Shown one piece after another: positions 646-55,530 of a stretch of 64,000 nucleotides of DNA; position 1 is the stretch's first letter, and each line of letters opens with the position of its first letter. The DNA lies in the NCBI GenBank assembly GCA_050173015.1, contig JBFXLE010000004.1:200133-264132 (forward strand), given 5' to 3'. Origin of the DNA: Calditrichaceae bacterium (GTDB lineage: Bacteria; Calditrichota; Calditrichia; Calditrichales; JBFXGD01). The notes under the pieces were generated by a model that searched no databases, was not told the DNA's origin, and saw nothing but the letters and a program-made list of their open reading frames with translations. Position numbers and translations under genes: made by a program.

Positions 646-1729
646 TTAAGAACGAAAACTCGCGCGAAGTACAAAATAGCCGACAACGCCCGAGACAAGT
701 GAACCCAGGATAATACCCAGCCTCTCATCAAACAATAAATTAACACCCGTTTCTTCAAAGGCGAGGGAGCCGATAAACAGGCTCATGGTAAAACATACAC
801 CGCACAACAAAGCCGTACTGTACAACGACATCCAGGACATTCCGGAGGCAATCTGGTAAATTTTAGTTTAATGCAAAGCCAGCACATCCCAAAAACCCCG
901 ACCTGTTTGCCTATAAATAAGCCGAGGGCAATACCCATCGGAACTGTGTGAAAAAATTGTTCAGAACCAATATCAAGAAAACTTAATCCCGCATTTGCAA
1001 ACGCGAAGACGGGCAAGACAAAAAAAGCGACTACTGTATGAAGATCGTGCTCCAAACTTTTCAGGGGCGAATAATGAGGCTCGGTTTTAGATTTTATGGG
1101 AATAAACATAGCCACTATCACACCGGTAAGTATCGCGTGAACACCCGATTTTAACATTGCCACCCACATTATGACCCCGACCGGCAAAAACGCGCTTTTT
1201 GATTCCGTCCCGCGTTTACTTAGAAAGAAAAGCATGGATACACAAGAAGCAACGACCAAAAGGGCGTTAAATGATATAGATGCTGTGTAGAAAAGGGCTA
1301 TTATTAAAATAGCGCCTATATCATCAAATATTGCTAGCGAAGTGAGAAATACCTTAATGCCGGCAGGAACTCTTGACCCGAGCAAAGATAATATGCCCAG
1401 TGCAAAAGTAATATCGGTCGCCGCGGGAATTGCCCAGCCTTTTATGGCCACGGGATCTCCCGCGTTAAAATAAGCATAAATTAAGGCCGGTAGCAACATG
1501 CCGCCAATCGCCCCAATAAACCATCATTAATCCAGAGTAATAGTGGTTTCGCTATCTCAAACACGCCAACCCGAATTACAACGGGAGTATCAAGAAGCAA
1601 TGTGAATTAAGATTGCAGGGGTGTATTTGCCAGCAACATGGCAAGCGCAGCGGTGAACATAAGCATAATGCCGCCGGCAAATTCGAGTTTGAAAAAGCTT
1701 GCTATGAAAGATTCATTGTTATTGTTCAT
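646..1729 (-). pseudogene. nhaA: Na+/H+ antiporter NhaA pseudogene
   Basis: NhaA motifs are spread over three frames: [45 protein letters not shown]. In-frame TAA at codon 41 (1607-1609). The MAxFF..GLELKRE segment is deleted near 1515, and there is a frameshift near 840. Confidence 0.9.
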
Positions 1730-1862
1730 GGTATTCCATCCATTCCGGATATGAAAAATTCGAACAGACACTGTTTGGTAGCGCTTAGTAACACGTAATT
1801 TCTGAAATTTATCATTATTGTGTTGTTTAACTCTTAGCCGCTGTAATTAAGGGAATCGCGTC

Positions 1863-2912
1863 TTATTTTTTATCCTTAATTTTTAGATTTTTTTTACGAA
1901 TTTCCCATTTTTTCTTTGCCAGTTCCTGCATATTTACTTCAATGTCCTTCTCATCCATAATTTCTAATCCAAGCAATGTCTCGATTATATCTTCCATCGT
2001 AACCAAACCTTGCATACCACCATATTCATTGATAATCAATGCTATATGTTCTTTTTTTACAAGTAATTCTTCGAGTAGTTTTGAAATAGAAAAGTTCTCG
2101 TAAAAGACGATTATAAAACGCTTTAAATCTTTAAGTTTTAGACTGTGCTTATCATTAGCCAGTTCTTCCAGTACATCCGATTTAAGAATATATCCCGTCA
2201 CGTTATCAATACTTCCTGAATAAACAGGGATTCTGGAGTATTGCAGATATTCCTTCTGCTTTATAAAATCATCAAGAAACATTTCTTCAGGCGCCGATAG
2301 GACAACAGTGCGCGGAGTCATAATTTCACGTACATTAATCTTCCTAAGTCTGATTAAATTGTCTATAACTTTACTTTCACTTTCTTTTAGCGCGCCGTCT
2401 TTTGTGCCTATATGCGCCAAGGCGACAACTTCTTCCCTGCTAACCTTTTGGGGTTTTTTGTTTTTTGAAATAAGTTTTGTTATGAATTCAGACAAAATTA
2501 CCAACGGATAAGAAATGTAAATCATCCCTATTATTACAAAGGCCGATGGCAAAGCCAGTTTTCTCCAGAAGATAGCTCCGATGGTTTTCGGAATAATTTC
2601 CGAAAAAAACAAAATCAAAATGGTAAGAGTGGCTGAAATTACTCCAAAATAGATCTCACCAAATACGGCGACCGCCTGGGCGCCGACACCGGCCGCGCCA
2701 ATCGTATGCGCCACCGTATTGATGGTTAATATTGCCGATAGAGGCCGGTCGATTTTGTTTTTTAGATCTTTTAGATATTTGGCGGATGCCTTTCCTTCAA
2801 TTTCTTTGATTTTAATGAAAGGGGCTGAAACTGACAGAATTACAGCTTCAGCGATTGAGCAGACAAAGGATACAACCAAAGCTAAAGCTAAATAAAAAAG
2901 AAGAAGCGTCAT
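1863..2912 (-). CDS. CNNM (DUF21) + CBS domain protein (hemolysin/CorB-like)
   Basis: CSIAEA, AILTINT and EIIPKTIG motifs; tandem CBS domains (MTPR, YSRIPVY, GLVTMEDIIE). Confidence 0.9.
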   Translation of the reverse strand: MTLLLFYLALALVVSFVCSIAEAVILSVSAPFIKIKEIEGKASAKYLKDLKNKIDRPLSAILTINTVAHTIGAAGVGAQAVAVFGEIYFGVISATLTILILFFSEIIPKTIGAIFWRKLALPSAFVIIGMIYISYPLVILSEFITKLISKNKKPQKVSREEVVALAHIGTKDGALKESESKVIDNLIRLRKINVREIMTPRTVVLSAPEEMFLDDFIKQKEYLQYSRIPVYSGSIDNVTGYILKSDVLEELANDKHSLKLKDLKRFIIVFYENFSISKLLEELLVKKEHIALIINEYGGMQGLVTMEDIIETLLGLEIMDEKDIEVNMQELAKKKWEIRKKNLKIKDKK

Positions 2913-3009
2913 AATTATATATGTTCCTATGATAAAACTTTTAGAATAATTAAGTATAAAAGGGTATTATGTAGTTTTCAATACTTTTATCAGATAAGTT
3001 CTGTCAAGC

Positions 3010-3092
3010 GGAGTAACCTTATTTTATAATACAAAGGTCAAAAAAACAAAAATAAGGTGAGAAGAGTTTAGCGAATCAATTAGGCGCATAAC
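3010..3092 (-). repeat. Truncated third copy of the start of the non-coding element
   Basis: AAGGTCAAAAAAACAAAAATAAGGTGAGAAGAGTTTAGCGAAT matches 7649-7691 and 5841-5884. Confidence 0.8.
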
Positions 3093-3188
3093 GGATAAAG
3101 CTTGGTGTCGTCCGTCGATTGACAACGATTGAAATTCATGACGGCAACAACAAGGCTCCATAAAGCACGTTTTTTGGCGTAGGTTAGT
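3086..3188 (-). other. attC-like integron cassette recombination site (degenerate)
   Basis: Minus strand: TACTAAC just after the stop codon, then GTTATGC core. Imperfect arms GAGCCTTGTTGTTGCCGTC / GACGGACGACACCAAGCTT. Confidence 0.6.
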
Positions 3189-3190
3189 AT

Positions 3191-3772
3191 TTATTTTACA
3201 ATGCTTTTAAACAAAGCCCCAAATTTTGGGATATACATGGGTGTCGTTTCCTTGTATTTCAGGTAATCAACTCCAAGTCTTTTTTCGAGTTCCGGCTCTT
3301 CGATGTATTTCAATTCAAGACTGTTAAACAGTATATATAATGGTGTAAAAATTACGACAAGAGAAAAACTCTCAATCATGATACCAAGGCCGAATAAAAA
3401 TAAATACAAACCGCTAATCATCGGATTTCGTGTATAGCCATACGGTCCTGCTTTAACTATTTCCGGCGGAGGATTTATAGGTACGGGTGTCCCATTAACT
3501 TTTAAAAAACAGAAGGCGGACCAGAAGGTCAGAAAAGAACCGAAGATGATCAGAGGCGCTGATAAATATAGATTGTACGGATAGCTTAGAATTGGAGCTA
3601 TATTTAGAAATTTATCTGTTTCAACGGAAATCAGAATGAATATGAATGTAAAAACGCCAAAAATCAGCACTCCTAAAGGTGTCAGAACATTTCTGACATG
3701 TTTCGCGCTTGTAGCAGCTTTATATATGAGATTGATCCAGGAAGACTTTAATCCCATTGAACATGTTCCCAA
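3191..3772 (-). CDS. Isoprenylcysteine carboxyl methyltransferase / PEMT family membrane protein (gene cassette); ATG at 3757 is an alternative start
   Basis: GTPVP..PP, GPYGYTRNPM and EEPELEKRLG.DY..YK motifs; flanked by attC-like sites. Confidence 0.85.
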   Translation of the reverse strand: MGTCSMGLKSSWINLIYKAATSAKHVRNVLTPLGVLIFGVFTFIFILISVETDKFLNIAPILSYPYNLYLSAPLIIFGSFLTFWSAFCFLKVNGTPVPINPPPEIVKAGPYGYTRNPMISGLYLFLFGLGIMIESFSLVVIFTPLYILFNSLELKYIEEPELEKRLGVDYLKYKETTPMYIPKFGALFKSIVK

Positions 3773-3798
3773 TGTATTGATATCACTAAATTACGTAG

Positions 3799-3929
3799 GT
3801 CTAACGACCCGGCATAAGCGGCGCGCGACCAGGCGGCCGCTACTTTTGACGAAACCGCTGCTCGACCGGATTGAAAAACCGCAAAAACCGCCCGGCTGTT
3901 AACCTCCGCCTTAATGCCGTTTGTTATGG
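3799..3929 (-). other. attC site
   Basis: Minus strand: CCATAAC-aaac-GGCATTAAGGCGG ... CCGCTTATGCC-gggtc-GTTAGAC. The arms pair with two extrahelical bases, as in canonical attC. Confidence 0.85.
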
Positions 3930-4036
3930 CGCCAACCACAAAACAGCAGGGTAGCCAAACATACAAAACCCGCTGAAACCAGCCCAAAAAAACTTATACA
4001 TAAAAGATAATTTCACATAGAGCATAAGCCGGGCTT

Positions 4037-4103
4037 GCCCAACAAAGGGTTCAGATTGTGGTTTGCAAAAAACGCTCATACAATCAAACCCTATTCGTTA
4101 TAC
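4037..4103 (-). other. attC site (short)
   Basis: Minus strand: GTATAAC-gaat-AGGGTTTGATTGT ... ACAATCTGAACCCT-tt-GTTGGGC, lying immediately after the stop of the 4110 gene. Confidence 0.75.
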
Positions 4104-4109
4104 GCTCAC

Positions 4110-5096
4110 TCAATCATTTATCATTTTAATCACTTTATAGCTGAAGTTGATTAGATTTTCAAGCCCAGCTGAATAAGTAGTATGAAAATAATAAACTTTA
4201 TTATCAATTTTCATAAGTAACATCTGGTTTGCCATCATGTCCCCATCATAATAGACCACAGTTCCCAAATCTCTATAATTTTGTAAGCCATATATTCCCA
4301 TTCCGACTAAATGATTTTGCTTATCTTGATCTTCAATCCAATTAGTCATCAGCTTATACTCCGGTTGCCTGGATATGTATGAAAATGTTTTTATTGCGTC
4401 TTTTGCTGGTGAAATCAATCCACCTGCAAACCCTGTAGCCGACCAATGAAATGGCCAGGGATTTTGATAGCCGAGTGGGTAATTTCCTTTTCCGTCATCC
4501 ATTCTAAGCGACGGAGCGATATTACCAAAATACTCTTTGATAATCGTATTAAAATCCTTTTTTAAAATCTTCTCAAGGATTATTCCTAAAATATTGTAAT
4601 TTGTATTTGAATATTGAAATTTTCCCCCTGGTTGGAATTCCAGTTCTTTATCCTGATATGCTGCCTGAATAGTCTGTAATGGGGTAATTATTAGGTTGGG
4701 ATCAATTTTAATGTATTTGATATATTCTTGTATACCACTTGTGTTATATAAAAGCATTTTTAGTGTAATAGAATCGGATTTTGTATATCCATATTCTTTG
4801 GGAAACCATTTTTCAATGGTCAAATCTAAGTCTATTTTTTCTTTTAAATATATATAACTAATACACGATTTAGTGCTCGGACAAGCGAGTTTCAAATCAT
4901 TATTCTCATTAATTCTTCCAGCGGTTAAAATGGTTAAACTGTCTGTAATTTCATCATAGAATCCGAACAATAATCCGTTGTCATCATTCTGAATAAATTG
5001 TTTCATAGATATTTGAACAGAATCGAGTATGGTTTGCGGAAAAACGGAGTTGGAACTTAAAAATAAAAACAACAATAGAACTTTAAACTTTCTCAT
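4110..5096 (-). CDS. Secreted serine hydrolase / beta-lactamase-like (AmpC family) protein, gene cassette
   Basis: Signal peptide MRKFKVLLLFL; ITLKMLLYNTSGI, F.PG.KFQYSNTNY.ILG.I.EK and AGGLIS motifs. The SxxK motif is non-canonical (CPSTK). Confidence 0.75.
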   Translation of the reverse strand: MRKFKVLLLFLFLSSNSVFPQTILDSVQISMKQFIQNDDNGLLFGFYDEITDSLTILTAGRINENNDLKLACPSTKSCISYIYLKEKIDLDLTIEKWFPKEYGYTKSDSITLKMLLYNTSGIQEYIKYIKIDPNLIITPLQTIQAAYQDKELEFQPGGKFQYSNTNYNILGIILEKILKKDFNTIIKEYFGNIAPSLRMDDGKGNYPLGYQNPWPFHWSATGFAGGLISPAKDAIKTFSYISRQPEYKLMTNWIEDQDKQNHLVGMGIYGLQNYRDLGTVVYYDGDMMANQMLLMKIDNKVYYFHTTYSAGLENLINFSYKVIKMIND

Positions 5097-5131
5097 AATT
5101 TCCCCTTTTGGCGTATAGCATTTTGATTCGA

Positions 5132-5902
5132 CGTCTCTGTTAATCGTCATTTTATTCTGATATTAGAAAAATTAATCGTCGAAAACAGTTCGCTCCTCCG
5201 TTTAATAGAATAGGATTTTTTTTAGACACACCACAAATCACTAGTTGCATGTTTTCATAAATCCGGCCCGATATTGTATCCAAATAATGAGCTGACATCT
5301 ATATCAAAAAATCAACTGTCATCGTTTTCAAGGATTGAAGCAAAAAGAAAAGATTAAATAAAATCGATATAATTATAATTAAAAGAAATGTAAATTTCAA
5401 CATCTAAAAATTCACATGCTATTCTTAATTCATAACACCATTATTTTGCCGGTCCATCGGCCAATTGCCGGGAGGAGATTCCGATAATCCACTTCGTCCC
5501 TCCCTGGCAAAGGGAAAGCATCTTATTCATCTTTAATAAAGGGTAGGGGGGTGATTCTACGGTGGGTTTGGCATGAGTAATCCGCGCGTCATATACAGAT
5601 ATAAAATGAAGCTTATTAAAAATATGTAAAAATTTTTAACCCGATGTCGGGAATTTTAAATTCCGTTTGGCAATAGATTTCAACCTTAGTGGCAAAACAG
5701 CACCACACCATTCCTTTATTATTCGGCATTAATGGTTGCCGTTCAAAATCGCTAAATATTAAATGGGTGAAAGATTGTTGGATTAAGTTCGTACCCAATA
5801 AGGTAATAAGGTTTGAAAGATTGGTTGATTTTATCCTACTAAGGTTAAAAAAAACAAAAATAAGGTGCTAAGAGTTTAGCGAATCAACTTTACGCGCATA
5901 AC
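5132..5902 (-). repeat. ~0.8 kb non-coding element, copy 1 (gene-less cassette-like)
   Basis: Colinear homology with 6881-7705 in two blocks, and with 3010-3092. Starts at a GTTATGC core on the minus strand. Confidence 0.85.
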
Positions 5903-5992
5903 GTTTGACATAAGCTGTGCGTAAGTCCGATGCTTTAAAAGTTGCCATTTTATGCTCCGAAGTGTGCGTCCTACTCAATGCCATTGGTATGT
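5896..5992 (-). other. attC-like site, degenerate left arm overlapping the gene end
   Basis: Right arm GCACAGCTTATGTC-aaac-GTTATGC is clear. Left arm ACATACC-aat-GGCATTGAG is degenerate. Confidence 0.5.
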
Positions 5993-6849
5993 TTACTTTT
6001 AATGATATCAACTATATTGTATTTGTTTTTAGAGATTATTCGCCAGACATTTTCCTTGTCATAGTCAATTTCAGACTTCACAATGTTAATGCTGTTTTGA
6101 TTAGAGTCGAATGAATATTCCAGTTTTTCACTATGTGGATTTGCTTCAGCCGAGGGAAAACATTTTTCCAGGAGAAATGTTTCGTTCTTCATATTTTTAG
6201 GAAAGTAATGAATAGCTATCGTTTGATAACCTTCCTGCTGATTGTTTCCAATATAATAAAAGCTTGAGTCATTGAAAATCTTGTGATCTTCAAATTTTAT
6301 TTCACCAATTCCGGTAATATCCATTTTTGAAAACATTCTATCAATAGTATAACCATTATCGCCAACTTTAAGTAATCCGTATGCATAGCAGATTCTTTCA
6401 AAACCAAAATACTCAACAAAAATCCCTAGTTGTAGCGTATCATTCACATCCTTTATTTCTTTTAAATAAAACAATCCATCATTCACATAGTGGCTCCTGG
6501 ATCGCAAATGATTTTCTTTTACAAAATATTCAATTATCCTCGAGAATTTATCTTTTCTTAACTGAAAGTTAAAAGCAAAACTCGTATCGATACTATTATC
6601 AAAAAGAGTAAAATTACTTGAATTTTCTTTTCCTCGCGCTTGATCATGATATTTTATCACATACAATCGATAAAATAGTGAGTCGTGAGTCAAAATTGAA
6701 TTTTTTGATTCTATTTCTGGCTTGGTTTTGTTTACTTTTAACTCATTATCCTGTGAAGTGACATGAGTTTTATTCTCATCAGAAGGCTTATTTTCATTTT
6801 GTTGACAGGAAAGAAACAAAAAAAATAAAATAAGAAGGATTTTCATCAT
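5971..6849 (-). CDS. Hypothetical lipoprotein (probable gene cassette)
   Basis: MMKILLILFFLFLSC lipobox; AT-rich; followed by an attC-like site. Confidence 0.75.
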   Translation of the reverse strand: MMKILLILFFLFLSCQQNENKPSDENKTHVTSQDNELKVNKTKPEIESKNSILTHDSLFYRLYVIKYHDQARGKENSSNFTLFDNSIDTSFAFNFQLRKDKFSRIIEYFVKENHLRSRSHYVNDGLFYLKEIKDVNDTLQLGIFVEYFGFERICYAYGLLKVGDNGYTIDRMFSKMDITGIGEIKFEDHKIFNDSSFYYIGNNQQEGYQTIAIHYFPKNMKNETFLLEKCFPSAEANPHSEKLEYSFDSNQNSINIVKSEIDYDKENVWRIISKNKYNIVDIIKSKHTNGIE

Positions 6850-6880
6850 TGACCCTGTAAATATGACATATTGCGTAATT

Positions 6881-7705
6881 GTCTCTGTTAATTATCGTTT
6901 AGTATTATGTTAGAAAAAATCTTTCTAATATTAGAAAAATTAATCATCGCAAACAGTTCGCTCCTCCGTTCTACAGAATAAAAACTTTTTAAGATTCACC
7001 CCAAACCATTCTTTGTATTTGAAATCCGGAATGAGATTCTATCCAAATAATGCGCTGACATCTATATCAATAAATCAACTGTTATCGTTTTCAACGATTG
7101 AAGCAAAAATAAAGGCTTAACTAAATACGTTATTATTATAAACAAATGTCATAAAGTTTTCAACCATTAAAAAATCTTCTGCTGTATTTTAAAGAATAGC
7201 TTGTGATAAGTACAAGCACAAAGGCATTTACAGCCAGAGCTTTTGATAAGACACTTAGTTCCCGATTGACATGGTGGAAACGCCTGAGCCTCACTAAAAA
7301 AATAGGTAGGGCAGGGGGCTAATGTGATTTTGGCCCGGGTAATCCCTGACCCATTGACTGATATAAAATGATACATATCTGACGATGTCTAAATTAGTAA
7401 CCAAAAGTGGGGAATTTTAAATAATGCCACCTACCGAAAATACTTTCATTCGAGACTCTCAATCGGTAAAACCTTATTTCCTAGTCTTTAACCTTAGTAG
7501 AAAAACAGTCCCACACAATTCCTTTACGTTTTGGAATGAATGGTTGCCTTTCAAAATCGCTAAATATAAAATGGGTGAAAGATTGTTGGGTTAAGTTCGT
7601 ACCCAATAAGGTAATAAGGTTTGATCGTATGGTTGGTATTATGCTACTAAGGTCAAAAAAACAAAAATAAGGTGAGAAGAGTTTAGCGAATTAACTTTAC
7701 GCGCA
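6881..7705 (-). repeat. ~0.8 kb non-coding element, copy 2
   Basis: Shares long near-identical stretches with copy 1, e.g. AAACAGTTCGCTCCTCCGTT, GCTGACATCTATATCAA, TTCAAAATCGCTAAATAT and TTAAGTTCGTACCCAATAAGGTAATAAGGTTTGA. Confidence 0.85.
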
Positions 7706-7722
7706 GGACTTCTGTTCTTTTA

Positions 7723-9042
7723 TTATTCAGAGAAATGCGACAATACCTGTTGGATATTCGCTACAAACGGCGTGGATGAATAACGGCTGATGGTCCAGGG
7801 GTTGATGAGTCCAATGACGGAAATGATCAATGAAATCGTAAAAAATATATTGAAAACACGCTGTCTGGCCACGCGGGATATCCGGAGGCGCGGATAAAGA
7901 AAGAAAAACCACAGGGGAATAAAGGGAACAAACCAGCGGATACTGTAGCTGTCCCCCGCGTAATTGTTTGTCATCAGCAGATAATACAAAATCATGATCA
8001 GCGAGGCGGTTCCAATCACTAATGCTTCTTTGCGGAATTTGCTTTTATTTTTGATTTCCCTGATTAAAAGGGGTAACGCGATCCATAAAAATGGATTATA
8101 AAGCAGAAAACCTTTCGGCCCGATCATCATCTGCGCACTGTATTCTAAAAAAACCGGCAGCGAATTCACCGAAATACCTGATAATTCATTGGATCCGTTC
8201 CAGGGGGAACCGGGATATTCAAAATAAGAACGGTCAATCTGAGCGGGAATGATACTGCCCGTGATCAGATAGCTCAGAAGAAGGGCGGGCAGGGCGGTAA
8301 ATAGGAGTGGTATAAAATAAAACACCGCTTTTTTTCGTAAGGGTGGATTTGTCAGGATATACGCGGCGAATCCCGCGTAGAAAACAGATGTCGGAATATC
8401 CATCGCCGCGGCTAAAGCAAGAAAGAATCCGCCGTAAAACACATCTTTACTGTCAGATTCAGCATATCGCGCCCGGAGCAGAAAATAATATCCCGTCATT
8501 AGCATTGACGCGGCCAGGGAATGATTGTTAAAGGTGGATGACCATGTAAAATGAAGCGAAGCAATTCCCAGCGCCAGAGTCAGCCAGAATCGTTTCCTGT
8601 TGCTGATTCCGGTGAATCCAAGCGCGGAATAGAAGGCGGCCAATCCGATAATCCAGAATAATTTGACCGTAAATAAAGTGATCAGGTAATACGACGCGTT
8701 CCATCCATAATCAAGTCTTATTCCGAGATGATACAGCGGCCAATAAACCGCCGCGCCAAGTATCGCCGGAAGCGCCGGTTTGTCGGAATAAAAATGCCCG
8801 TTTACAAAAATTTTATCTCCCGTGTCGGAAAAAACCGAACGGTCGATGGCAAAGGTGCCATGCTCCACCAGGGACTGCACAACGGCCATGCGACTGGAAT
8901 CATTCCACGAAGCCGCTTTGGGTTTAACAGAGATGATTGAAATGAGAATCAGCAGTAAAATTAAATTGCGAAGCGCGAATTTACGGTCTGCAGATAAAGC
9001 GGGTGTATTACTTCCGGAAATAACTTGAGAAACAAAACGCAA
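7723..9042 (-). CDS. Polytopic membrane protein, possibly a GT-C fold glycosyltransferase
   Basis: About 11 hydrophobic segments; first loop SWNDSSR...FYSDKP; GFLLYNP and IRWFVP motifs. Confidence 0.6.
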   Translation of the reverse strand: MRFVSQVISGSNTPALSADRKFALRNLILLLILISIISVKPKAASWNDSSRMAVVQSLVEHGTFAIDRSVFSDTGDKIFVNGHFYSDKPALPAILGAAVYWPLYHLGIRLDYGWNASYYLITLFTVKLFWIIGLAAFYSALGFTGISNRKRFWLTLALGIASLHFTWSSTFNNHSLAASMLMTGYYFLLRARYAESDSKDVFYGGFFLALAAAMDIPTSVFYAGFAAYILTNPPLRKKAVFYFIPLLFTALPALLLSYLITGSIIPAQIDRSYFEYPGSPWNGSNELSGISVNSLPVFLEYSAQMMIGPKGFLLYNPFLWIALPLLIREIKNKSKFRKEALVIGTASLIMILYYLLMTNNYAGDSYSIRWFVPFIPLWFFFLYPRLRISRVARQRVFNIFFTISLIISVIGLINPWTISRYSSTPFVANIQQVLSHFSE

Positions 9043-9096
9043 TATTATTCTCCATATTCGGCTTTATTTGTCTGAACTCTGACCGGATGAAAGCTA

Positions 9097-9127
9097 AAGT
9101 AGGAAGTAGGAAGTAGGAAGTAAGAAG
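9097..9127. repeat. Heptamer tandem repeat (AAGTAGG)n
   Basis: Read directly from the sequence. Confidence 0.8.
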
Positions 9128-9328
9128 GTCAGGAATAATCTGTTTCCCCCTTGATCAAAGGTGGACTAAGGGGGTTGTTTCTTGACCCGAGAAAGTAAAA
9201 TGAAAAAGTGTCTGAACTGTGATTATCGGTGTTCTAATCATAGCCCGTCATTTAATCATTTCCACCCGCCAGAGGCGGGCAGGTCAGAGTTCAAACCGTT
9301 CTTCATCTTTTTTCTTTTTTCGTTTATC

Positions 9329-9444
9329 TTTTTTCTTATCCTTCCTACTTCTCAAGGCGCATGATCATGCACCCCTACAGTTTCTTGCTTCTTCCCAGGG
9401 CGCGAGCATCGCGCCCCTACTTCCTACTTCTTACTTCTTACTTC
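9329..9444. repeat. Composite GTAG-type REP pair plus heptamer repeats
   Basis: Hairpins AAGGCGCATGATCATGCACCCCTAC and AGGGCGCGAGCATCGCGCCCCTAC, then (CTTCYTA)n. Confidence 0.75.
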
Positions 9445-10048
9445 AGATTTTTTCTCCGTGCGGCGGGATCGGTTTTAGTATCAAAACGGTAGCGTTCCCC
9501 AGCCGGACTTCAATTAATTTAATATCCTCTTTCAGATTTCTCAAAGAATTTTCACCCTTCCAGAATTCTTCCATATATTCGGCGTTGTGAGATTGGGGAT
9601 TGCGCATACCGATGATTTTCCAAAAATCGGATGGCAGTTCCAGCTTGAATTCAACTGCTTCATTTGGTCTGATCAGGTTTTTGGACGGGTATTTTTCCCG
9701 GCTTCCCTTGATAAGAATCATTTTATCATCACTTACGGTATAAATGATAAACTGGTCGGAATTATAATTATAGGTCAATGGATAAACATCTGTATTTACC
9801 ACCTTAATCATCACCGCCTCGATGTCGAATTCCGCGTAGGCGTATATTTTCGGATTCATGTCGCTGGTTCGTTTATACCGGGCGCCTTCCGCCTGAGTGT
9901 AAGATACAATTTTGAATTCGTTTGATTCATCGGCGTTCATTTTTATGCCAAAAAAGTCATTCATACTTCTGGGCGAACAGGAAAGAATGATGAGCATAAT
10001 TAAAAAAATGGCAAATACATTTTTTAAAAAAGCAATATTTTTATCCAT
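9443..10048 (-). CDS. Hypothetical lipoprotein
   Basis: AAGGCGGTG RBS before MDKN; hydrophobic stretch ending in an ILSC lipobox. Confidence 0.7.
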   Translation of the reverse strand: MDKNIAFLKNVFAIFLIMLIILSCSPRSMNDFFGIKMNADESNEFKIVSYTQAEGARYKRTSDMNPKIYAYAEFDIEAVMIKVVNTDVYPLTYNYNSDQFIIYTVSDDKMILIKGSREKYPSKNLIRPNEAVEFKLELPSDFWKIIGMRNPQSHNAEYMEEFWKGENSLRNLKEDIKLIEVRLGNATVLILKPIPPHGEKI

Positions 10049-10094: not shown

Positions 10095-10245
10095 TCCCCT
10101 TTTCGAAAGGGGACAAGGTGTTTCCCCCTGGCCAAACGGGGACTAAGGGGGTTACTTCCACAAAAACGTTTTAAATGAACCGGACCGAAGAATCACAACC
10201 CCCTAACCCCCTTTATTAAGGTGTTCCCCCCTTGCCAAACGGGTT
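10095..10245. repeat. Cluster of CCCC..GGGG / GGACTAAGGGGGTT palindromic repeats (another copy at 9145-9177)
   Basis: GGACTAAGGGGGTT occurs near 9164 and 10140; several CCCCCT...AGGGG hairpins. Confidence 0.6.
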
Positions 10246-11237: not shown

Positions 11238-11544
11238 CGGTTCCCCTGTCTTTACCATATAGAACATGAGTGGCAATATGAATATTTCAGCATGAAAACG
11301 CGTGGAAAATTTATCATTTTTCGGCGGGGTTTTAGAAAGGGGAAATACTCGGGACCATATAATCAGTACCAGCTGTGATCCTTTACGCGAAATATTCATT
11401 GATGGCGTTGATTGGAGAATAGTCTGAACTTTGATTAGTGTGATTAAAGGATGGCCTATGATTTGAACATGGTAATCATGCGCATTCGCCAAAGGCGGAC
11501 AGGTCACGGTTCAGACATTTTCCCATTCTTCAAGTCTCACTTCC

Positions 11545-11675
11545 AGCTTCTTGCTTCTTTCCAGGGCGCGAGCATCGCGCCCCTACTCTTTTTTCTTATC
11601 CTTCTTACTTCTCAAGGCGCATAATCATGCGCCCCTACTCTTAACTTCCTACTTCTTACTTCCTACTTCCTACTT
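11545..11675. repeat. Composite GTAG-type REP pair plus heptamer repeats (second copy, modules swapped)
   Basis: Same two REP hairpins as 9329-9444, in reverse order. Confidence 0.75.
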
Positions 11676-12195
11676 TATCTTCCACGTTATCAGCCGGCGC
11701 GTAAAGCTTCAGTTCCGCGCCGTCCCCCGGTAAACTGATCATTTTTTCAAATCTCATACCCAGCTTTTCAAGAACTTTGATCGATTTGTCATTGTCGCGC
11801 GTGGTGATGGCCACAATCCGCTCCAAACCAAAAACATCTTTTCCATAGGTTAACAGGGTGGAAGCCGACTCGGTCGCGTATCCCTTACCGGTAAACGCCG
11901 GCATAAAGGCAAAACCGATGTCCACATCCGTCAGATAATCCCTTTTTATCAATCCGCACATCCCAATCGGGATACCGCTGTCTTTTAATCCGACCAGGTA
12001 CAGCCCGAATCCAAACTGTTTATAGCTTTGAACCGGTCCGTTCAATATATAGTCACGCGCGTCATCAAGCGTACGCACACCCTTGTCACCGATATAACGC
12101 AGCCATGAAGGGTCATTGACGAGCTCAAGGATAAACGGAGCGTCCTCAACGGTAAGCTCCCGCAGCGCCAGCCTTTCAGTTTCAAGAATTGTCAT
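11656..12195 (-). CDS. GNAT N-acetyltransferase, RimJ/RimL family
   Basis: LETERL.LR, GKGYATE and N.KS.KVLEKLGM motifs. Confidence 0.9.
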   Translation of the reverse strand: MTILETERLALRELTVEDAPFILELVNDPSWLRYIGDKGVRTLDDARDYILNGPVQSYKQFGFGLYLVGLKDSGIPIGMCGLIKRDYLTDVDIGFAFMPAFTGKGYATESASTLLTYGKDVFGLERIVAITTRDNDKSIKVLEKLGMRFEKMISLPGDGAELKLYAPADNVEDKVGSRK

Positions 12196-34815: not shown

Positions 34816-35469
34816 TCAATCTTGTTTCAAATATGCTTTGGCGGCGTTTAAAAGGATTTCAGATTTAATCCTGACGCGATGATCGGGATTTACATATTCG
34901 AACTTGATAAGACCATCCGTTCCGATGATAAAAACGGCGGGAACGGGTAAAATATGATGATTTTCCCCGGAAGCCGCCTCTATATCCATTTCATGCGATT
35001 TATACATAGCCACTTTCTCATCATCAAGTTTGTAGGCAACGCCAAAGGCCTTCGCGCTTTTTAACTTGCTGTCTGAAAGCAGTTTGTAAGTTAACCGGTG
35101 GCGATTGACACTTTCAGAAAGTTTTTCCGGCCGATCGGCACTGATCCCGATGATCTGGTATCCTAAATTTATTAAATCCTGCTCAATGTCCTGCAGTTGA
35201 CCCAACTGCAAATTACAATACGGTCACCAACCGCCGCGGTAGATGATCAGAATGGTCGGTGTTTTTGAAACTGATTTTGTTAAATCATAAGAATTGCCAT
35301 CCAGGTCCTTAAGAACCAGATTCGGTACCTGACTACCCACAAGCAGCGGGCAGATCTCGGTCGGCGAAGACGCGACTTGTCGCGATCCTTGTGAGACGCT
35401 TGAAAGTGGAAATAAGAGCAAAATCAAAGGTATGATTAGTACTGCAAAGTTAATCAATTTAAAATTCAT
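34816..35469 (-). CDS. AhpC/TSA peroxiredoxin-like selenoprotein (UxxC), exported
   Basis: ORFs 35224-35469 and 34816-35211 are in one frame, joined by TGA at 35226-24: YRGGW-U-PYCN. SECIS-like hairpin follows. Confidence 0.85.
35191..35211 (-). promoter_or_regulatory. Bacterial SECIS-like hairpin
   Basis: TGCAGTTG-GGT-CAACTGCA: perfect 8-bp stem with G-first loop, starting 13 nt after the UGA. Confidence 0.7.
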
Positions 35470-36324: not shown

Positions 36325-37194
36325 TTATGATTCAAAAACATCTTTAAATGTTAATAACCTTTTCGATACCGCGGGGTGAGAATAATTTAGACCGTCAAAT
36401 CCTCTTCCGCCGATAAACAATTTTATGCTGAAACGGTCGCATAAGTCGCAGATGTTATCAAATTCGGCCTGGGTACGCACGGGATCTTCAAAATAGGTGC
36501 TGGAAATGTACATTCGCTCAGGCGCGAAATGTTCAAATATGTGTTCCAAACGCGTCTGTGGCGTTTTTTGTCCGCTAAAAAGCACTTTGAAACCGCGTAG
36601 TTCCAATATATGATCGACCATTTTCAGCGCGATATCATGAAGTTCAAGATCGAAGTTCATGCACATTGCCATCCCGACCCTTTTTTGTGGCATTCGAATA
36701 ATTCCCTGCAGACGAATGAGACTATCTTTTATAGTCTGAGACGCGAAATGTTCCTCCGTGATCGAGATGATCTCTTTTTCCCACAGGTCACCAATTTGAT
36801 AGAGAAGTGGGGTGACCAGCCGGTCATAAATTTCATATAACGGATATTGCGCAAGATATAAGCCGTTCAATACCTGTTGTACACGGCTCCGGTTACAGTT
36901 TAACGCCTGCTGTAGTGTGTAGGCAATAAGATAGTCGAAATCATGATGAAAAATATGGTAACTGATCTGTAAATCTTCTTCTTTTTCAATAGGAATGACC
37001 TGAATTTTTGATGAATATTTATTATTCTCGTCAATAAATTTTTTCAAATGTTCAATTAAAAATTTCCGGTGACCGCCTGCTGTCTTGACACACTCCAGCT
37101 TACCTGATTCCGTCCATCGTTTGATGGAGGATACATTTACACCGAGCAGGACTGCTGCCTCCTCCGTACTAAAATATTGTATTTTTCCTTTCAT
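36325..37194 (-). CDS. CarH/LitR-like B12-dependent photoreceptor repressor (MerR/excisionase HTH + B12-binding domains)
   Basis: HTH S..EAA.LLGV..SSIKRW...G.L...KT.GGHR; W-x9-EH (WEKEIISITEEH); ELH; GG. Divergent from the crt operon. Confidence 0.8.
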   Translation of the reverse strand: MKGKIQYFSTEEAAVLLGVNVSSIKRWTESGKLECVKTAGGHRKFLIEHLKKFIDENNKYSSKIQVIPIEKEEDLQISYHIFHHDFDYLIAYTLQQALNCNRSRVQQVLNGLYLAQYPLYEIYDRLVTPLLYQIGDLWEKEIISITEEHFASQTIKDSLIRLQGIIRMPQKRVGMAMCMNFDLELHDIALKMVDHILELRGFKVLFSGQKTPQTRLEHIFEHFAPERMYISSTYFEDPVRTQAEFDNICDLCDRFSIKLFIGGRGFDGLNYSHPAVSKRLLTFKDVFES

Positions 37195-37584
37195 CGCTAC
37201 CTCCCTATGAACAGAGCCGGCTTAAAATACAATCTCCCGGATGATTAAATTAGTTGTACCCAATAAAAAACGCTTATTTCGCTCATAAAATGAATTTAAG
37301 CTGAAAATATTGAAAGAACAACAGAAAATGAATAAAATCACCATCTCCCGGCTTTAGTATATCTAAACGGTTCTCTATAATGAAAAAAATATATTAAAAA
37401 TTCCGGAATTATTTTTAGATGTATGAAGTTATTTAAAACAAAATGAGCGATATGAGCGAAATAATTTTGATTTGGACAAAAAGTATAACTCGAGGCGATA
37501 ACCTATACAAAGCTGTTCGGATCAGTTAAATGAAAAATCTATGAATAGTTTAAAACAAGGCAGATCAGGGAGAAATAAATAATA

Positions 37585-38265
37585 GTGATGAAAGCAGAAT
37601 ATCTGATTTTTAATTTACTGATTGTTTCGGGCCCGGTTGTTCTGAGTTTTGACCGCAGAGTAAATTTCTATGGATTGTGGGCGAAAGCATTGACGGCATC
37701 GATAATCACGCTTGTGCCGTTTGTCATATGGGATATACTGGTTGCCGGAAAACACTGGTGGTTTAATGATGCCTATATAACGGGAATCAGGATTGCGGGA
37801 CTACCTGTCGAAGAACTGATGTTTTTTGTGACCGTTCCATTTGCCTGCATTTTCATCTGGGAAGTTCTCGGCGCGTATGTTTCTGATTACAGAATAGAAA
37901 AAGCAGCCCTGTTTAGATTTATCCTGTATTTTTTGTTATTTCCGGCCGCCTTTTATTTGTTGAACGGCAAAATATACACGGCGCTTGTCCTTACTGCCAT
38001 CAGTCTGACGGCGTTGCTGGACAGGATTCTCCAAACGGATATTTTTACCAGATCGAGAACATATCTGCAGTTTATGCTTGTTACATTCTTAATTTTAATA
38101 TTTAACGGATATCTTACCTCGAGACCAATCGTATTGTATGATCCCGTTTATCAAATCAACTTTAGAATTATGACGGTGCCTTTGGAAGATTTCTTTTACG
38201 GATATGCTCATGTTTTCTCATCGGTCATAGTTTATTTGAAACTGAAAGGAGATATCCGTGGCTAA
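37585..38265 (+). CDS. crtYcd: Lycopene cyclase, fused CrtYc/d type
   Basis: Two repeats: WD...W.FN...LPVEE.MFF and NGYLT...VPLEDFFY. Confidence 0.8.
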   Translation: MMKAEYLIFNLLIVSGPVVLSFDRRVNFYGLWAKALTASIITLVPFVIWDILVAGKHWWFNDAYITGIRIAGLPVEELMFFVTVPFACIFIWEVLGAYVSDYRIEKAALFRFILYFLLFPAAFYLLNGKIYTALVLTAISLTALLDRILQTDIFTRSRTYLQFMLVTFLILIFNGYLTSRPIVLYDPVYQINFRIMTVPLEDFFYGYAHVFSSVIVYLKLKGDIRG

Positions 38266-39769
38266 ACGAGTGACAGTGATAGGAGCCGGCTTGGGAGGCT
38301 TATCGGCAGCGATTCGACTTGCAAGCATGGGTTTTAAAGTAACTGTTTTCGAAAAAAACGAGAAACCCGGCGGCAAGATGAATGAAATAATAAATCATGC
38401 ATATCGTTTTGACACGGGGCCATCCCTGCTTACCATGCCGTTTGTAATTGATGAGTTGTTTGAATACGCCGGTTTTAAACGCTTTGATTTTCTTGAATTC
38501 AAACCTGTTGATCCGGTGTGCCGCTACTTTTTTAACGATGGCAGTACGTTTGATACCTTTAATAATCCTGAGGAAATGATCTTTTCTCTCGCGGGCTTCG
38601 CGCCGGAGGAAGTTGAAAATTACCAAAAATTCATGGCTTATTCCCGTGATCTTTATGAAAGAGCCGGTCACCTGTTTTTGACCACACCTATTCATGAGAA
38701 AGCTAAAATGTTCAGGCCGGGCATCTTCTCCCTCATCGCGGGGATACATAAAATAGATCCATTCCGCACAGTCCACCAGGGAGTATCCGGTTTTTTTAAT
38801 GACAAGCGTCTCATTCAGTTATTTGACCGTTACGCGACGTACAACGGATCAGATCCCTACAGGGCGCCGGCTACGCTTAATATGATTCCTTATCTGGAAA
38901 CTCATCCGGGGGCTTTCTATATAAGCGGAGGGATGTACCGGCTGGTTGACACAATGGTAAAAATCGCGGAAACACTCCAAATCGATATCCGGACTTCCAC
39001 AATTGTAGAACAGATTATACATAAGAACAAAAAGGTGGAAGCGGTGAGTATCGACGGGCATGAATTGAAAACAGATTATGTGGTATGCAACGCCGACGTT
39101 GTTTCCGCTTATACCGGATTGATAGACGGTTTGCCCAAAAAAACAAAACGTTACCAGAAACTGGAACCATCGCTTTCCGGGATGGTATTCCTGTGGGGAA
39201 TTAAAGGGACTCATTCAGGGTTAAAACATCATAATATCCTTTTTAGCAAAAACTATAAAAAAGAATTCGCTCGTATATTTAATGATCTTCAACATCCCGA
39301 TGACCCCACGGTTTATATTGCCATAACCAGTAAAACAGATCCGGAACACGCCCCGGAAAATGGTGAAAACTGGTTTGTACTTGTGAATATGCCTTATCTG
39401 GCTGTTCAAAATAAATGGACATCTGACATTGATTCGGTTCGAAAAACTATATTTAGAAAACTTGCTGAACACGGGATTGATGTAGCCGGTAAAATCGAAA
39501 CAGAGAAGGTGCTCACCCCCGAAACTTTTCAAAATTTATATGGCGCGAACCGCGGCAGTATTTACGGGTTATCTTCAAATAGTCGGTTAAGCGCGTTCTT
39601 AAGACCGGCCAACCGAAGCCGTGAAATCGAAGGCCTGTATTTTGTCGGTGGATCCGCGCATCCGGGCGGCGGAATTCCACTTGTCATTTTATCGGGAAAA
39701 ATGACAGCTGACCTGATCGGCGAAACGGTTAGCTTCACACAAAAAAACAGATATAAAGTAAAGGCTTAA
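38258..39769 (+). CDS. CrtI-family desaturase, probably CrtD-type 1-hydroxycarotenoid 3,4-desaturase
   Basis: GAGLGGL, FDTGPSLLTMP, FDRYATYNGSDP and GSAHPGGGIP motifs. Confidence 0.75.
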   Translation: MAKRVTVIGAGLGGLSAAIRLASMGFKVTVFEKNEKPGGKMNEIINHAYRFDTGPSLLTMPFVIDELFEYAGFKRFDFLEFKPVDPVCRYFFNDGSTFDTFNNPEEMIFSLAGFAPEEVENYQKFMAYSRDLYERAGHLFLTTPIHEKAKMFRPGIFSLIAGIHKIDPFRTVHQGVSGFFNDKRLIQLFDRYATYNGSDPYRAPATLNMIPYLETHPGAFYISGGMYRLVDTMVKIAETLQIDIRTSTIVEQIIHKNKKVEAVSIDGHELKTDYVVCNADVVSAYTGLIDGLPKKTKRYQKLEPSLSGMVFLWGIKGTHSGLKHHNILFSKNYKKEFARIFNDLQHPDDPTVYIAITSKTDPEHAPENGENWFVLVNMPYLAVQNKWTSDIDSVRKTIFRKLAEHGIDVAGKIETEKVLTPETFQNLYGANRGSIYGLSSNSRLSAFLRPANRSREIEGLYFVGGSAHPGGGIPLVILSGKMTADLIGETVSFTQKNRYKVKA

Positions 39770-39771
39770 TA

Positions 39772-41310
39772 ATGTTAAAAATAAAAGAGAGCACTCAATC
39801 ACATAAACTAAAAGCAGTGGTGATAGGTTCGGGTTTTGGAGGTTTGGCTGAAGCAATTCGCTTGCAGGCCCGTGGTTTTGAAGTCACCATCATTGAGAAG
39901 CAGGATAAGGCAGGCGGCAAAGCTCATCAGATAAAAAAAGACGGGTATGTGTTTGATATGGGACCGTCACTCATCACAGCTCCGGATATCATAAAACGGG
40001 TTTTTGATGCGGCCGGAAAGCGGATGGAAGATTATATCGATCTGATCCGTCTCGATCCCGGTTACAGGATCTATTTTCATGACGGAACACATATTGAGTA
40101 CACCTCCGATTCACAAAGAATGAAAGAACAAATGCGCGCGTTCCATCCCGGCGACGCGGAAAACTATGATGAATTTATGGAACAGACGCGAAAGCTGTAT
40201 CATGCGGTTATAACCGAAGGTATGGGTTCGACACCTTTTCATGATATAAAAAAGTTGATCCAGTTTTTACCGAGAGCCTTGAGATTAAGCGCGCTTACCC
40301 CGGCTTATAGCTTTGTGAAACGGTATTTTGATGACCCCAGACACCGGTTTACTTTTTCGTTTCATCCGCTTTTTATCGGTGGAAGTCCTTTTAAGATCCC
40401 TTCTGTCTATCTGATGATCCCCTACCTTGAAAAAACGGGTGGAATCTGGTTTGCCCGCGGAGGCATGTATAGTCTGGTAGAAGCCTTTGCCAAAGTATTT
40501 GTGGAAATCGGCGGAACGCTTATAACAGGGGTTCCGGTGGAAGAAATCATCACGGAAAACGGCAAGGCAAGAGGTGTCAGAACTTCGACTTCATTTTATG
40601 AAGCGGATGTGGTCATATCCAACGCGGATTTTGCGCATACTTATAAAGATTTAATCAAGTCTGAAGACCGTAAGAAATGGACGGATAGAAAAATCGATAG
40701 TTTAGATTATTCAATGAGCGCGTTTCTAATATATTTGGGAGTGAAAAAGCAGTATCCCAAATTACTCCATCATACACTGATTCTTTCAGAAAGATATAAA
40801 AAATTGGTCACTGATATTTTTGATAAAAAAATACTGCCGGATGATTTTTCAATGTACCTGCACGCGCCTACGCGTACCGATCCGTCAATGGCGCCCGATG
40901 GACATGAAAGTCTATATGTGCTCATACCCGTGGCCAATCTGAAGGGTAAGATTGACTGGGAGAGTGAAAAGAAAAAGTACGCGGATAAAGTCATTGATTT
41001 TCTGGAGAAGGATTTTGGGATGATTGATCTCAGGGAAAATATCGAAGTACAGGAGATTTTCACACCGGTTGATTTCAAAGAAAAACAAAATGCCTATCTC
41101 GGCAGCGCCTGGGGAGTGGAACCAAAGTTGATGCAAACCGCTTATTTCAGGCCGCACAACCGGAGCGAAGATATCAAAAATCTATATTTTGTTGGAGCAA
41201 GCACTCATCCGGGAGCGGGAGTTCCCGGCGTGTTGCTTACCGCGGAAACGACAGAAAATGTAATATTGTCAGATTTTGGATTGCAGCAATTTAATCTAAA
41301 GAGCGCCTGA
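39772..41310 (+). CDS. crtI: Phytoene desaturase
   Basis: [37 protein letters not shown] and [10 protein letters not shown] motifs. Confidence 0.9.
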   Translation: MLKIKESTQSHKLKAVVIGSGFGGLAEAIRLQARGFEVTIIEKQDKAGGKAHQIKKDGYVFDMGPSLITAPDIIKRVFDAAGKRMEDYIDLIRLDPGYRIYFHDGTHIEYTSDSQRMKEQMRAFHPGDAENYDEFMEQTRKLYHAVITEGMGSTPFHDIKKLIQFLPRALRLSALTPAYSFVKRYFDDPRHRFTFSFHPLFIGGSPFKIPSVYLMIPYLEKTGGIWFARGGMYSLVEAFAKVFVEIGGTLITGVPVEEIITENGKARGVRTSTSFYEADVVISNADFAHTYKDLIKSEDRKKWTDRKIDSLDYSMSAFLIYLGVKKQYPKLLHHTLILSERYKKLVTDIFDKKILPDDFSMYLHAPTRTDPSMAPDGHESLYVLIPVANLKGKIDWESEKKKYADKVIDFLEKDFGMIDLRENIEVQEIFTPVDFKEKQNAYLGSAWGVEPKLMQTAYFRPHNRSEDIKNLYFVGASTHPGAGVPGVLLTAETTENVILSDFGLQQFNLKSA

Positions 41311-41327
41311 ACAAAAATGGGGGATGT

Positions 41328-46408: not shown

Positions 46409-46452
46409 ATGTAGAGTGTTTTGCCATTATGCGAATTGAATAAAGAGTCAGA

Positions 46453-47175: not shown

Positions 47176-47185
47176 GGTCTTACGG

Positions 47186-55332: not shown

Positions 55333-55428
55333 AATGTCTCCTCAATATTTCAAGGTTCGAAGTTATAATTCTGTCGCCTCTAATATAAGGAATAAATTCA
55401 CTTAATATAAACCTTTTTCAGGAATGGA

Positions 55429-55530
55429 AAAGTAGGAAGTAAGAAGTGAGAAGTAGGAAGTAAGAAGTAAGAAGTAGGAAGGAAGAATTAAGAAAAAAGA
55501 TAAAAGACAAAAGAATAAAGATTTAAGAAT
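55429..55530. repeat. Heptamer tandem repeat (AAGTARG)n decaying into a purine-rich tract
   Basis: Read directly from the sequence; same unit as at 9097. Confidence 0.8.

Follow-up and report, generated by a model that had tools for sequence, protein, structure and literature searches.

The gene-less repeat and its setting

The window analysed here is a stretch of 64,000 nucleotides (nt) from a Calditrichaceae bacterium (GenBank assembly GCA_050173015.1, contig JBFXLE010000004.1, positions 200,133 to 264,132 of the forward strand), and positions below are those of the window unless another locus is named. The subject of this report is a gene-less stretch of about 0.8 kb that occurs there in two full copies and a stub. 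It is a real, conserved non-coding repeat. Rather than one unit, it is the tail-to-head junction of two modules: a tail block that carries TAAGGT boxes (B), a segment S, a decayed hairpin like those of repetitive extragenic palindromic (REP) sequences, and a promoter-proximal head block (P). Genes and blocks follow one another in the order glycosyltransferase-like gene (GT), B-S-REP-P (copy 2), a gene for a protein of 292 amino acids (aa), B-S-REP-P (copy 1), a beta-lactamase-fold gene, a small insert, a PEMT gene, the B stub, a CNNM gene, a broken NhaA gene and DeaD (Table 1).

By blastn, copy 1 (5132-5905) and copy 2 (6881-7712) are 70.7% identical over 795 columns (E 2e-122). The colinear repeat families between 5155-5859 and 6923-7667 are D1 (186 nt, 85%), D3 (162 nt, 80%), D7 (96 nt, 80%) and D8 (60 nt, 70%), and a 60-nt family with three copies takes in 3040-3099. 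The stub, 74 nt long by nhmmer and placed at 3021-3093 by blastn, is 86.8% identical to copy 1 over 76 columns and 89.6% identical to copy 2 over 67 columns. An earlier reading of the letters alone (the sequence-only reading) had described two colinear homologs and a third stub, and the repeat families, blastn and nhmmer all agree with it.

Its description of the edges and boxes is equally accurate. Read on the minus strand, all three copies open with GT(TA/CC)TGCGC, that is, with the cores that had been named: GTTATGCGC in copy 1 (5902 to 5894) and the stub (3092 to 3084), and GTCCTGCGC in copy 2 (7709 to 7701). The 5' edge of the repeat coincides with a G↓TT crossover-like point, the arrow marking the break. 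Both full copies end in ATTAACAGAGAC (5133-5144 and 6881-6892), which lies 36 and 31 nt before the likely ATG codons (5096 and 6849) of genes for proteins with signal-peptide-like N-termini. In copy 1, TAAGGT is found at 5799, 5807, 5840 and 5861 and the inverted ACCTTA at 5683; copy 2 keeps all five boxes (7607, 7615, 7648, 7668 and 7491), with one more at 7471. The whole window contains about as many TAAGGT boxes as chance would give (22, with 24.6 expected), but 13 of them fall within or at the three copies.

The two proteins encoded downstream of the full copies are mutually unrelated (best E 0.49), which rules out the idea that the downstream genes are paralogs. The gene after the stub encodes a CNNM/CBS protein.

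Table 1. Positions of the repeat's blocks, of attC-like sites and of the genes behind the two full copies
Feature	Position	Strand	Basis and remarks
P module, copy 1 (head block)	5118..5436	-	nhmmer E 4e-92 and alignment; predicted promoter, ~270-nt leader, sharp junction before the beta-lactamase-fold gene
Predicted sigma70-type promoter, copy 1	5372..5400	-	TTGAAA-17-TATAAT, 11/12; predicted transcription start near 5365
P core, copy 1 (most conserved 90 nt)	5273..5362	-	three-way identity and comparison with four-fold degenerate sites
Divergent middle, copy 1	5437..5672	-	segment S 5557-5661 (present in copy 2, not in the related locus L001) and decayed REP-like hairpin ~5478-5522
B module, copy 1 (tail block)	5673..5906	-	nhmmer E 1e-76; starts G↓TTATGCGCG; five TAAGGT/ACCTTA boxes
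P module, copy 2	6867..7200	-	predicted promoter 7135-7163, core 7036-7125
Middle, copy 2	7201..7479	-	tail common to L001, segment S 7319-7422, decayed REP-like hairpin ~7238-7282
B module, copy 2	7480..7713	-	nhmmer E 2e-76; starts G↓TCCTGCGCG, 13 nt past the stop of the 439-aa glycosyltransferase-like gene
B stub	3019..3092	-	nhmmer E 2e-12; first ~45 nt of B, then ACCTT-N13-AAGGT; precedes the CNNM gene
Secreted beta-lactamase-fold (PF00144) protein gene, downstream of copy 1	4110..5096	-	likely start ATG 5096, not 5150
292-aa lipoprotein-like protein gene, downstream of copy 2	5971..6849	-	no Pfam family
attC-like site A	3089..3158	-	after the PEMT gene; ends GTTATGC where the stub begins; imperfect hairpin, z -1.3
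attC-like site B	3800..3928	-	CCATAAC to GTTAGAC; closes a ~240-nt cassette without a convincing gene; long imperfect hairpin, z -0.7
attC-like site C	4016..4109	-	after the beta-lactamase-fold gene; single imperfect hairpin, z -2.0
attC-like site D, degenerate	5903..5960	-	between the 292-aa gene and copy 1; by eye; folds no better than shuffles, z +0.41

A related locus holds the two halves apart

A collection scan with the neighbouring 439-aa protein as the query returned seven loci (L001-L007). This protein, a membrane glycosyltransferase-like one, is 82% identical to a protein of a metagenome-assembled genome named 'Calditrichaceae bacterium', a match that assigns the window to Calditrichaceae. 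Six of the loci (L002-L007) come from other phyla and contain only distant homologues of the neighbouring gene; L001 (7,455 nt) is the sole close relative, with nucleotide identities of 82% over the GT gene and 86.5% over DeaD. The order in L001 is the GT gene, REP-like hairpins, P (2568-2876), three open reading frames (ORFs), one of them with an HTH_3 domain, a palindrome-like site ending G↓TTATGCGCC, B (4574-4804), a tail, a REP-like hairpin and DeaD. The two conserved halves are therefore apart and in reversed order there, flanked by the same genes as in the window, and it is for this reason that the element is read as a junction of two modules.

The divergence of the blocks points the same way. 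For P, copy 2 is closest to L001 (identity 0.84), and copy 1 and copy 2 agree at 0.76; for B, copies 1 and 2 are closest (0.875), and identity to L001 is 0.75-0.77. By these figures the P and B halves differ in their histories of divergence and form a mosaic, in which the P of copy 2 is likely the ortholog of the P of L001. The earlier view of the repeat as a single mobile unit is not borne out, given the separate blocks and swapped order in L001 and the different histories of the blocks. Profiles of P and B, run with nhmmer, found no further copy in the window or the seven fetched loci. For repeat hunting, the '0.8 kb element' is a caution, as its two-module nature is visible only via the locus of the relative.

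The insert between P and B in L001 (3014-4344 of that locus) contains ORFs of 138, 170 and 154 aa. The HTH_3 domain is in the middle one, and the outer two have no assigned family; the insert may represent a small module of a regulatory or defence type.

The head block: a predicted promoter, a conserved core and a fixed end

The top two promoter-like matches on the minus strand between 2800 and 8000 are homologous sites of copies 1 and 2, each matching at 11 of 12 positions, and L001 has TTGAAA-16-TAAAAT at the same place. A predicted outward promoter of the form TTGAAA-16/17-TA(T/A)AAT is thus kept in all three P copies. Between copies 1 and 2, the hexamers are identical at 12 of 12 bases and the spacer at 8 of 17. 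Transcription would start near 5365 in copy 1 and 7128 in copy 2, giving leaders of ~270 and ~280 nt. Since the predicted promoter is conserved in all three copies, the 'portable promoter' proposed in the sequence-only reading is the part of it that fits best.

The 90 nt that follow the -10 box form the core of the block and are 89-91% identical in all three pairs. Compared with L001, the two window cores are identical at 82 and 80 of 90 positions. The four-fold degenerate sites of the flanking genes, compared between the window and L001, are identical at 154 of 234 positions (66%), a difference with one-sided p values of 1e-6 and 1e-5, which supports the earlier proposal of a non-coding repeat under selection. 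The flanks of the copy 1 core show neutral-like divergence (0.63-0.65). A TTCAA-N3-TTGAA palindrome lies inside the P cores and nowhere else in the window, and the core also contains near-identical octamer direct repeats, GATGACAG and GATGTCAG, 22 nt apart. RNAalifold found compensatory changes in 0 of 66 predicted pairs of the P leader, with a covariation penalty of +5.45 and many substitutions that break pairs. Because no pair is compensatory and many are broken, conservation of the core appears to be at the level of primary sequence (three sequences give this comparison low power), and a protein-binding operator is more likely than an RNA fold.

P homology stops at the same nucleotide in all three copies (...ATTAACAGAGAC followed by ~13 nt, ...CAAWAT). 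Behind this end lie three unrelated sequences, which start G↓CTATACGC, G↓TCATAT and A↓TTGGAT. Two GAYGATTAAY direct repeats precede the junction by 20-60 nt, and the sole three exact matches to this motif in the window lie there.

The tail block and the divergent middle

The B block consists of a 45-nt lead with a T-rich run and an imperfect palindrome of ~175 nt closed by AACCTTAGT...ACTAAGGTT; in copy 1 the inverted self-match covers 5678-5850. The closing inverted repeat is 10-13 bp long, and one of its stem pairs changes from T-A to C-G in L001, the sole compensatory change among 44 predicted pairs. B homology opens at GTTATGCGC (G↓TT) in three of the four copies (copy 1, the stub and L001), each time behind a different palindrome-like sequence. 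In copy 2, B begins with GTCCTGCGC directly behind a gene stop, with no attC-like site upstream, and homology with L001 breaks at 7709/7708. In the stub, the long palindrome appears to have collapsed to ACCTT-N13-AAGGT.

Identity between B and L001 is 75-77%, modestly above the neutral yardstick (p 0.008-0.02), and L001 retains three of the five TAAGGT/ACCTTA boxes. It had been suggested that the boxes could belong to an attI-like platform; they are part of the tail block, at a distance of 550-750 nt from the site where genes are swapped, which together with their partial retention speaks against that role. B may bind a protein, may insulate one transcription unit from the next, or may simply represent conserved sequence to the right of the insertion point.

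Segment S (~105 nt), which lies between B and the REP remnant, is 70-79% identical between copies 1 and 2 and is missing from L001. In their divergent middle, both copies also align with a REP-like hairpin, GTTTCCCCCTTG.CAAAGGGGGACTAAGGGGG, which recurs at 9144-9181 and 10121-10158 and three times in L001, where it precedes P and follows B. In this respect the element resembles dispersed REP-like hairpins; unlike them, it is explained by such a hairpin over only ~45 nt, and its own copies of the hairpin are decayed.

The intergenic regions 9089-9455, 11544-11680 and 55408-55502 contain heptamer tandem repeats (GAAGTAG/GAAGTAA) and two kinds of GC-rich hairpin repeat (D2 and D9-D12), including the REP-like hairpin of the element. 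A long-range helix between the start of B and the end of P, seen in two-sequence folds, was rejected: it falls on invariant columns, and the L001 changes TTCGCT to TTAGCT and GGAGGAGCGAAC to GGAGCAGCGAAT do not compensate, as judged by eye.

A junction that may restart transcription

We favour, at slightly better than even odds, a composite tail/head junction in which an internal promoter/leader module restarts the expression of the downstream cassette and has been joined to an array-tail block by duplication. P would supply a sigma70-type promoter that fires toward the next gene through a leader of ~270 nt, with unrelated genes beginning behind its fixed end. B would be the tail module, starting at the G↓TT point after an attC-like palindrome. 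The relative has a single variable insert, headed by one P and tailed by one B, between the core genes that also flank the locus here. Each junction in the window would then restart transcription in the array, the downstream gene would receive its own promoter together with a shared leader/operator, and the two secreted proteins, though unrelated, would share their pattern of expression and regulation. The analysis shows the composite structure, the conservation across species, the conserved promoter hexamers and the fixed junctions, and finds no coding or structural-RNA signal; promoter activity, the route of duplication and the part played by the 90-nt core are inferred.

The history of the locus may have had three steps. 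A P-genes-B unit with flanking REP-like repeats, as in L001, would first have been duplicated in tandem by unequal crossing-over at the repeats, which would create a B-REP-P junction. This junction would then have been copied again, and later events would include a deletion (the one that brought the GT gene next to B in copy 2), gene conversion, and exchange or decay of inserts. Tandem duplication by unequal crossing-over at REP-like repeats is the most likely cause of the two B...P junctions.

Several observations weigh against this reading. Promoter-like hexamers are common in this AT-rich DNA (30 matches, compared with 21.5 +/- 4.9 in shuffles), so that the argument for a promoter comes from conservation and not from the match itself. 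The sample is small: two genomes supply three copies of P and three and a third of B. Another collection scan covered 185,579 species genomes with a 23-nt pattern common to all three copies, TTCGCTAAACTCTTNNCACCTTA; it gave 0 matches, so neither the window's own genome nor any close copy is among those representative genomes. Segment S is present in both window copies and absent from L001, which means that the whole junction spread as one piece at least once; this also fits a mobile unit, and the B...P junction may move as a pseudo-cassette. Copy 2 lies directly behind the GT gene without a preceding P, and the duplication model needs an extra deletion to account for it.

The integron framing is weak as well. 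The four attC-like candidates (~3.1-6.0 kb) were identified by eye, not with an attC covariance model, and their fold z scores run from +0.4 to -2.0: a single long imperfect hairpin forms in three of them (-0.7 to -2.0) but not in the fourth (+0.4). The triplets at the P junctions (GCT, GTC and ATT) do not include GTT. No integrase, PF00589 domain or other recombinase was found among 55 window ORFs of at least 120 aa and 50 further stop-to-stop frames of at least 60 aa (1-13.9 kb).

Integron-based alternatives

Integrase crossovers leave homology breaks aligned at G↓TT, and the core consensus is RYYYAAC/GTTRRRY. The sequence-only reading had placed the repeat in an integron cassette array. One part of this stands, in that attC-like imperfect palindromes do occur at ~3.1-6.0 kb; the other does not, as there are none elsewhere (the minus-strand gene run from 9 to 37 kb is without them) and no integrase was found in the window. 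Our own scan for AAC...GTT hairpins as attC candidates gave, as its top matches, chance pairs inside coding genes. In L001, the four ORFs scanned contained no integrase, and the two long ORFs of that locus are the GT and DeaD homologues. The integron context of the locus is thus only suggestive. Between two of the attC-like sites, the ~240 nt at 3800-4035 (minus strand) contain only ORFs of 51 and 79 aa, with no Pfam family, and may be a second, unrelated gene-less cassette.

A further observation had been that the front of the beta-lactamase-fold gene, GCTATACGC (5111-5119), is nearly complementary to the gene's own attC-like site, GCGTATAAC (4097-4105). This near-complementarity is real, with 8 of 11 positions complementary, 7 of them contiguous. 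When the final ~110 nt of the three P copies were folded to a consensus, no conserved hairpin appeared across the junction, and single-strand DNA folds of the P end have z scores of +0.17 and -0.32. An attC site had been considered there: TTCGACG/CGTCGAA in copy 1 and TTGCG/CGCAA in copy 2 looked compensatory, and the candidate was rejected when L001 proved by eye to have no partner and the consensus fold no hairpin. As the last ~110 nt are without a conserved hairpin, the P end is not of the attC kind; should it serve as a recombination site, its type would be attI.

The best-surviving alternative, though we consider it unlikely, develops this point: the P end would be an attI-type site with its own Pc-like promoter (Pc being the integron promoter), on a platform that is integrase-less or served in trans, and B would be the original right flank. 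In its favour, homology among the three P copies is lost at one shared nucleotide, with unrelated inserts beyond it; the first letters of one insert, TTGGAT, agree with TTRRRY, and another insert starts CTATACGC, which matches its own attC-like core. The predicted promoter is directed into the inserts, and the two GAYGATTAAY repeats stand 20-60 nt before the junction. Set against these are the missing intI in both the window and L001, the three junction triplets, the fact that no empty site with P joined to B was seen, and the position of the nearest AAC box, whose distance of 19-20 nt from the junction exceeds what a simple core site allows.

A wider version of the same idea, to which we give a low probability, is that P and B make up a new integrase-less cassette-capture locus of Calditrichaceae. 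The P end and the B start would then be a new attI-type site with a promoter and a 90-nt operator/leader, and the in-array B...P stretches would be duplicated platforms forming nested arrays. If true, such a locus would impose common regulation on any inserted gene, which would be notable; the evidence for it comes from three junctions in two genomes.

Equally doubtful is a single mobile gene-less integron cassette, moved by an integron integrase as one 0.8 kb piece and ending in a degenerate 3' attC of its own. Copy 1 does have an attC-like site on one side and, on the other, a gene with a front, GCTATACGC, that complements the attC-like site of that same gene, which suggests two fused cassettes; both copies contain segment S and the REP remnant, which L001 does not have at a junction; and inverted letters are found near the end of each copy (TTCGACG...CGTCGAA and TTGCG...CGCAA). 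These letters form no conserved hairpin in the three-way fold and have no stem partner in L001 by eye. The cassette would also have to account for the halves that lie apart in the order P...B in L001 and differ in their history, for copy 2 without an attC-like site upstream, and for 64 kb without an integrase.

Coding capacity, RNA structure and remnants of mobile elements

The element contains no protein-coding gene. Two frames are open through the best-conserved block in both window copies, and their changed codons (6 synonymous and 15 non-synonymous in one, 2 and 18 in the other) are about neutral. Tests of codon position and of synonymous and non-synonymous counts were about neutral in every frame, and a 1-nt indel in the best-conserved core of L001 breaks both open frames. 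Pfam searches with the small ORFs and stop-to-stop frames of the element gave nothing meaningful at E <= 10 (best, PFV_capsid, E 0.16). A 60-aa plus-strand ORF and a 48-aa leader ORF have no homologue among 5.8 billion proteins.

It had been claimed that no ORF with a shared start is conserved, and this is nearly right. A short ORF with a common ATG exists (5298, 7061 and, in L001, 2705), with its first 13 codons conserved and total lengths of 48, 21 and 13 aa. This ORF is probably not what is conserved, because nucleotide homology runs on past its stop in L001.

Strong sequence conservation without coding potential could also indicate a long structured RNA transcribed from one strand, be it a large non-coding RNA or a leader of the riboswitch kind; a long structured RNA was among the options that the sequence-only reading had offered. 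The B inverted repeat of 10-13 bp, which closes ~150 nt, and its single T-A to C-G change in L001 would suit such an RNA. However, a search of the whole window against Rfam 15 gave 0 matches at the gathering score, and three chance-level matches only at E <= 10 in 2800-8000 (15-21 bits, compared with thresholds of 46-70). No transfer RNA or transfer-messenger RNA was found in a scan of 1-12 kb. Compensatory change was seen in none of the 66 pairs predicted for the P leader and in one of the 44 predicted for B, and pair-breaking substitutions are many, in a comparison of three sequences with low power. A structured RNA is therefore very unlikely, and this part of the earlier proposal is not upheld.

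The sequence-only reading had itself raised the possibility that the copies are fragments of an insertion sequence (IS) or of a decayed gene, and no Pfam, plasmid or phage match was found. A decayed gene, IS or miniature inverted-repeat transposable element (MITE) is hardly credible: two frames are open through the B core in both window copies and B is a long imperfect palindrome like that of many MITEs, but codon changes are about neutral, the L001 indel breaks the frames, Pfam at E <= 10 and the protein search with two ORFs gave no match, blastn against plasmid and phage collections found no match to the repeat, and the element ends, GTTATGCGCG... and ...ATTAACAGAGAC, show by eye no terminal inverted repeat or target duplication.

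Other genes in the window

Beyond the stub, an NhaA Na+/H+ antiporter gene lies at 646-1846 (minus strand) over three frames, with Pfam positions 2-30, 100-320 and 312-374 in 1607-1846, 783-1523 and 646-867, respectively; it is either a pseudogene or an assembly error. L001 has neither NhaA nor CNNM at the corresponding place.

Two further loci in the window are worth recording. At 34816-35469 (minus strand), a gene of the AhpC-TSA peroxiredoxin/thioredoxin fold has an in-frame TGA exactly at its redox motif. Reading TGA as U gives ...IIYRGGWUPYCN... behind a signal peptide; the split gene is a candidate selenoprotein gene rather than a truncated one. At 36325-50836, a MerR-type regulator with a B12-binding domain is divergent from a carotenoid cluster, which consists of a lycopene cyclase, three phytoene-desaturase-like oxidases, a phytoene synthase, a glycosyl- and an acyl-transferase and an RPE65 oxygenase. 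This layout looks like light-controlled carotenogenesis.

Comparison with known systems and significance

Integrons have 5' and 3' conserved segments and a Pc-attI platform. The P and B blocks are similar to these in that an outward-promoter block heads and another block tails the variable genes, and in that inserts join at one fixed nucleotide. They differ in that no intI lies by the head block, the junction triplet is not GTT, and the head-plus-tail junction is repeated in the array.

Clusters of attC sites lacking an integron integrase (CALIN) offer a second comparison (Cury et al. 2016, PMC4889954). The criterion is at least two attC sites found with an attC covariance model and no intI nearby. 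As that paper notes, once a CALIN has become separated from an integron, the Pc of the integron no longer drives its expression (PMC4889954). The present locus, whose sites were found by eye, would at best qualify as a small CALIN by the usage of that paper. Like a CALIN as described there, it has several attC-like palindromes behind unrelated small genes on one strand and no integrase or pseudogene nearby; unlike one, it appears to bring its own (predicted) promoter.

By analogy, the repeat most resembles promoter-carrying gene-less integron cassettes. Gene-less cassettes with sense-strand promoters have been shown experimentally in Vibrio superintegrons (Blanco et al. 2024, PMC11014356), and ORF-less, promoter-carrying cassettes have been reported in Treponema (Tansirichaiya et al. 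2019, PMC6557892). The likeness lies in a non-coding stretch within a cassette-like gene run, with no ORF of more than 70 aa conserved between the copies, and in a sense-strand promoter, predicted here, that would serve the next gene independently of a platform promoter. One defining feature of such cassettes, an attC of its own, is missing: the repeat is a composite of ~0.8 kb without a recognisable attC, and its halves are separate in a related genome. It also differs by the added conserved leader of ~270 nt, by its occurrence in Calditrichaceae and by a window without an integrase.

Cassettes that lie far from an integron promoter, or are without one, are usually assumed to be silent, and only recently have gene-less promoter cassettes been shown to activate them in Vibrio. 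The present locus points to a comparable solution in a phylum that has hardly been studied, and two features are added to it here. The first is a long leader, highly conserved between species, which would put unrelated secreted proteins under one control. The second is an architecture of head block and tail block that can be duplicated inside the array.

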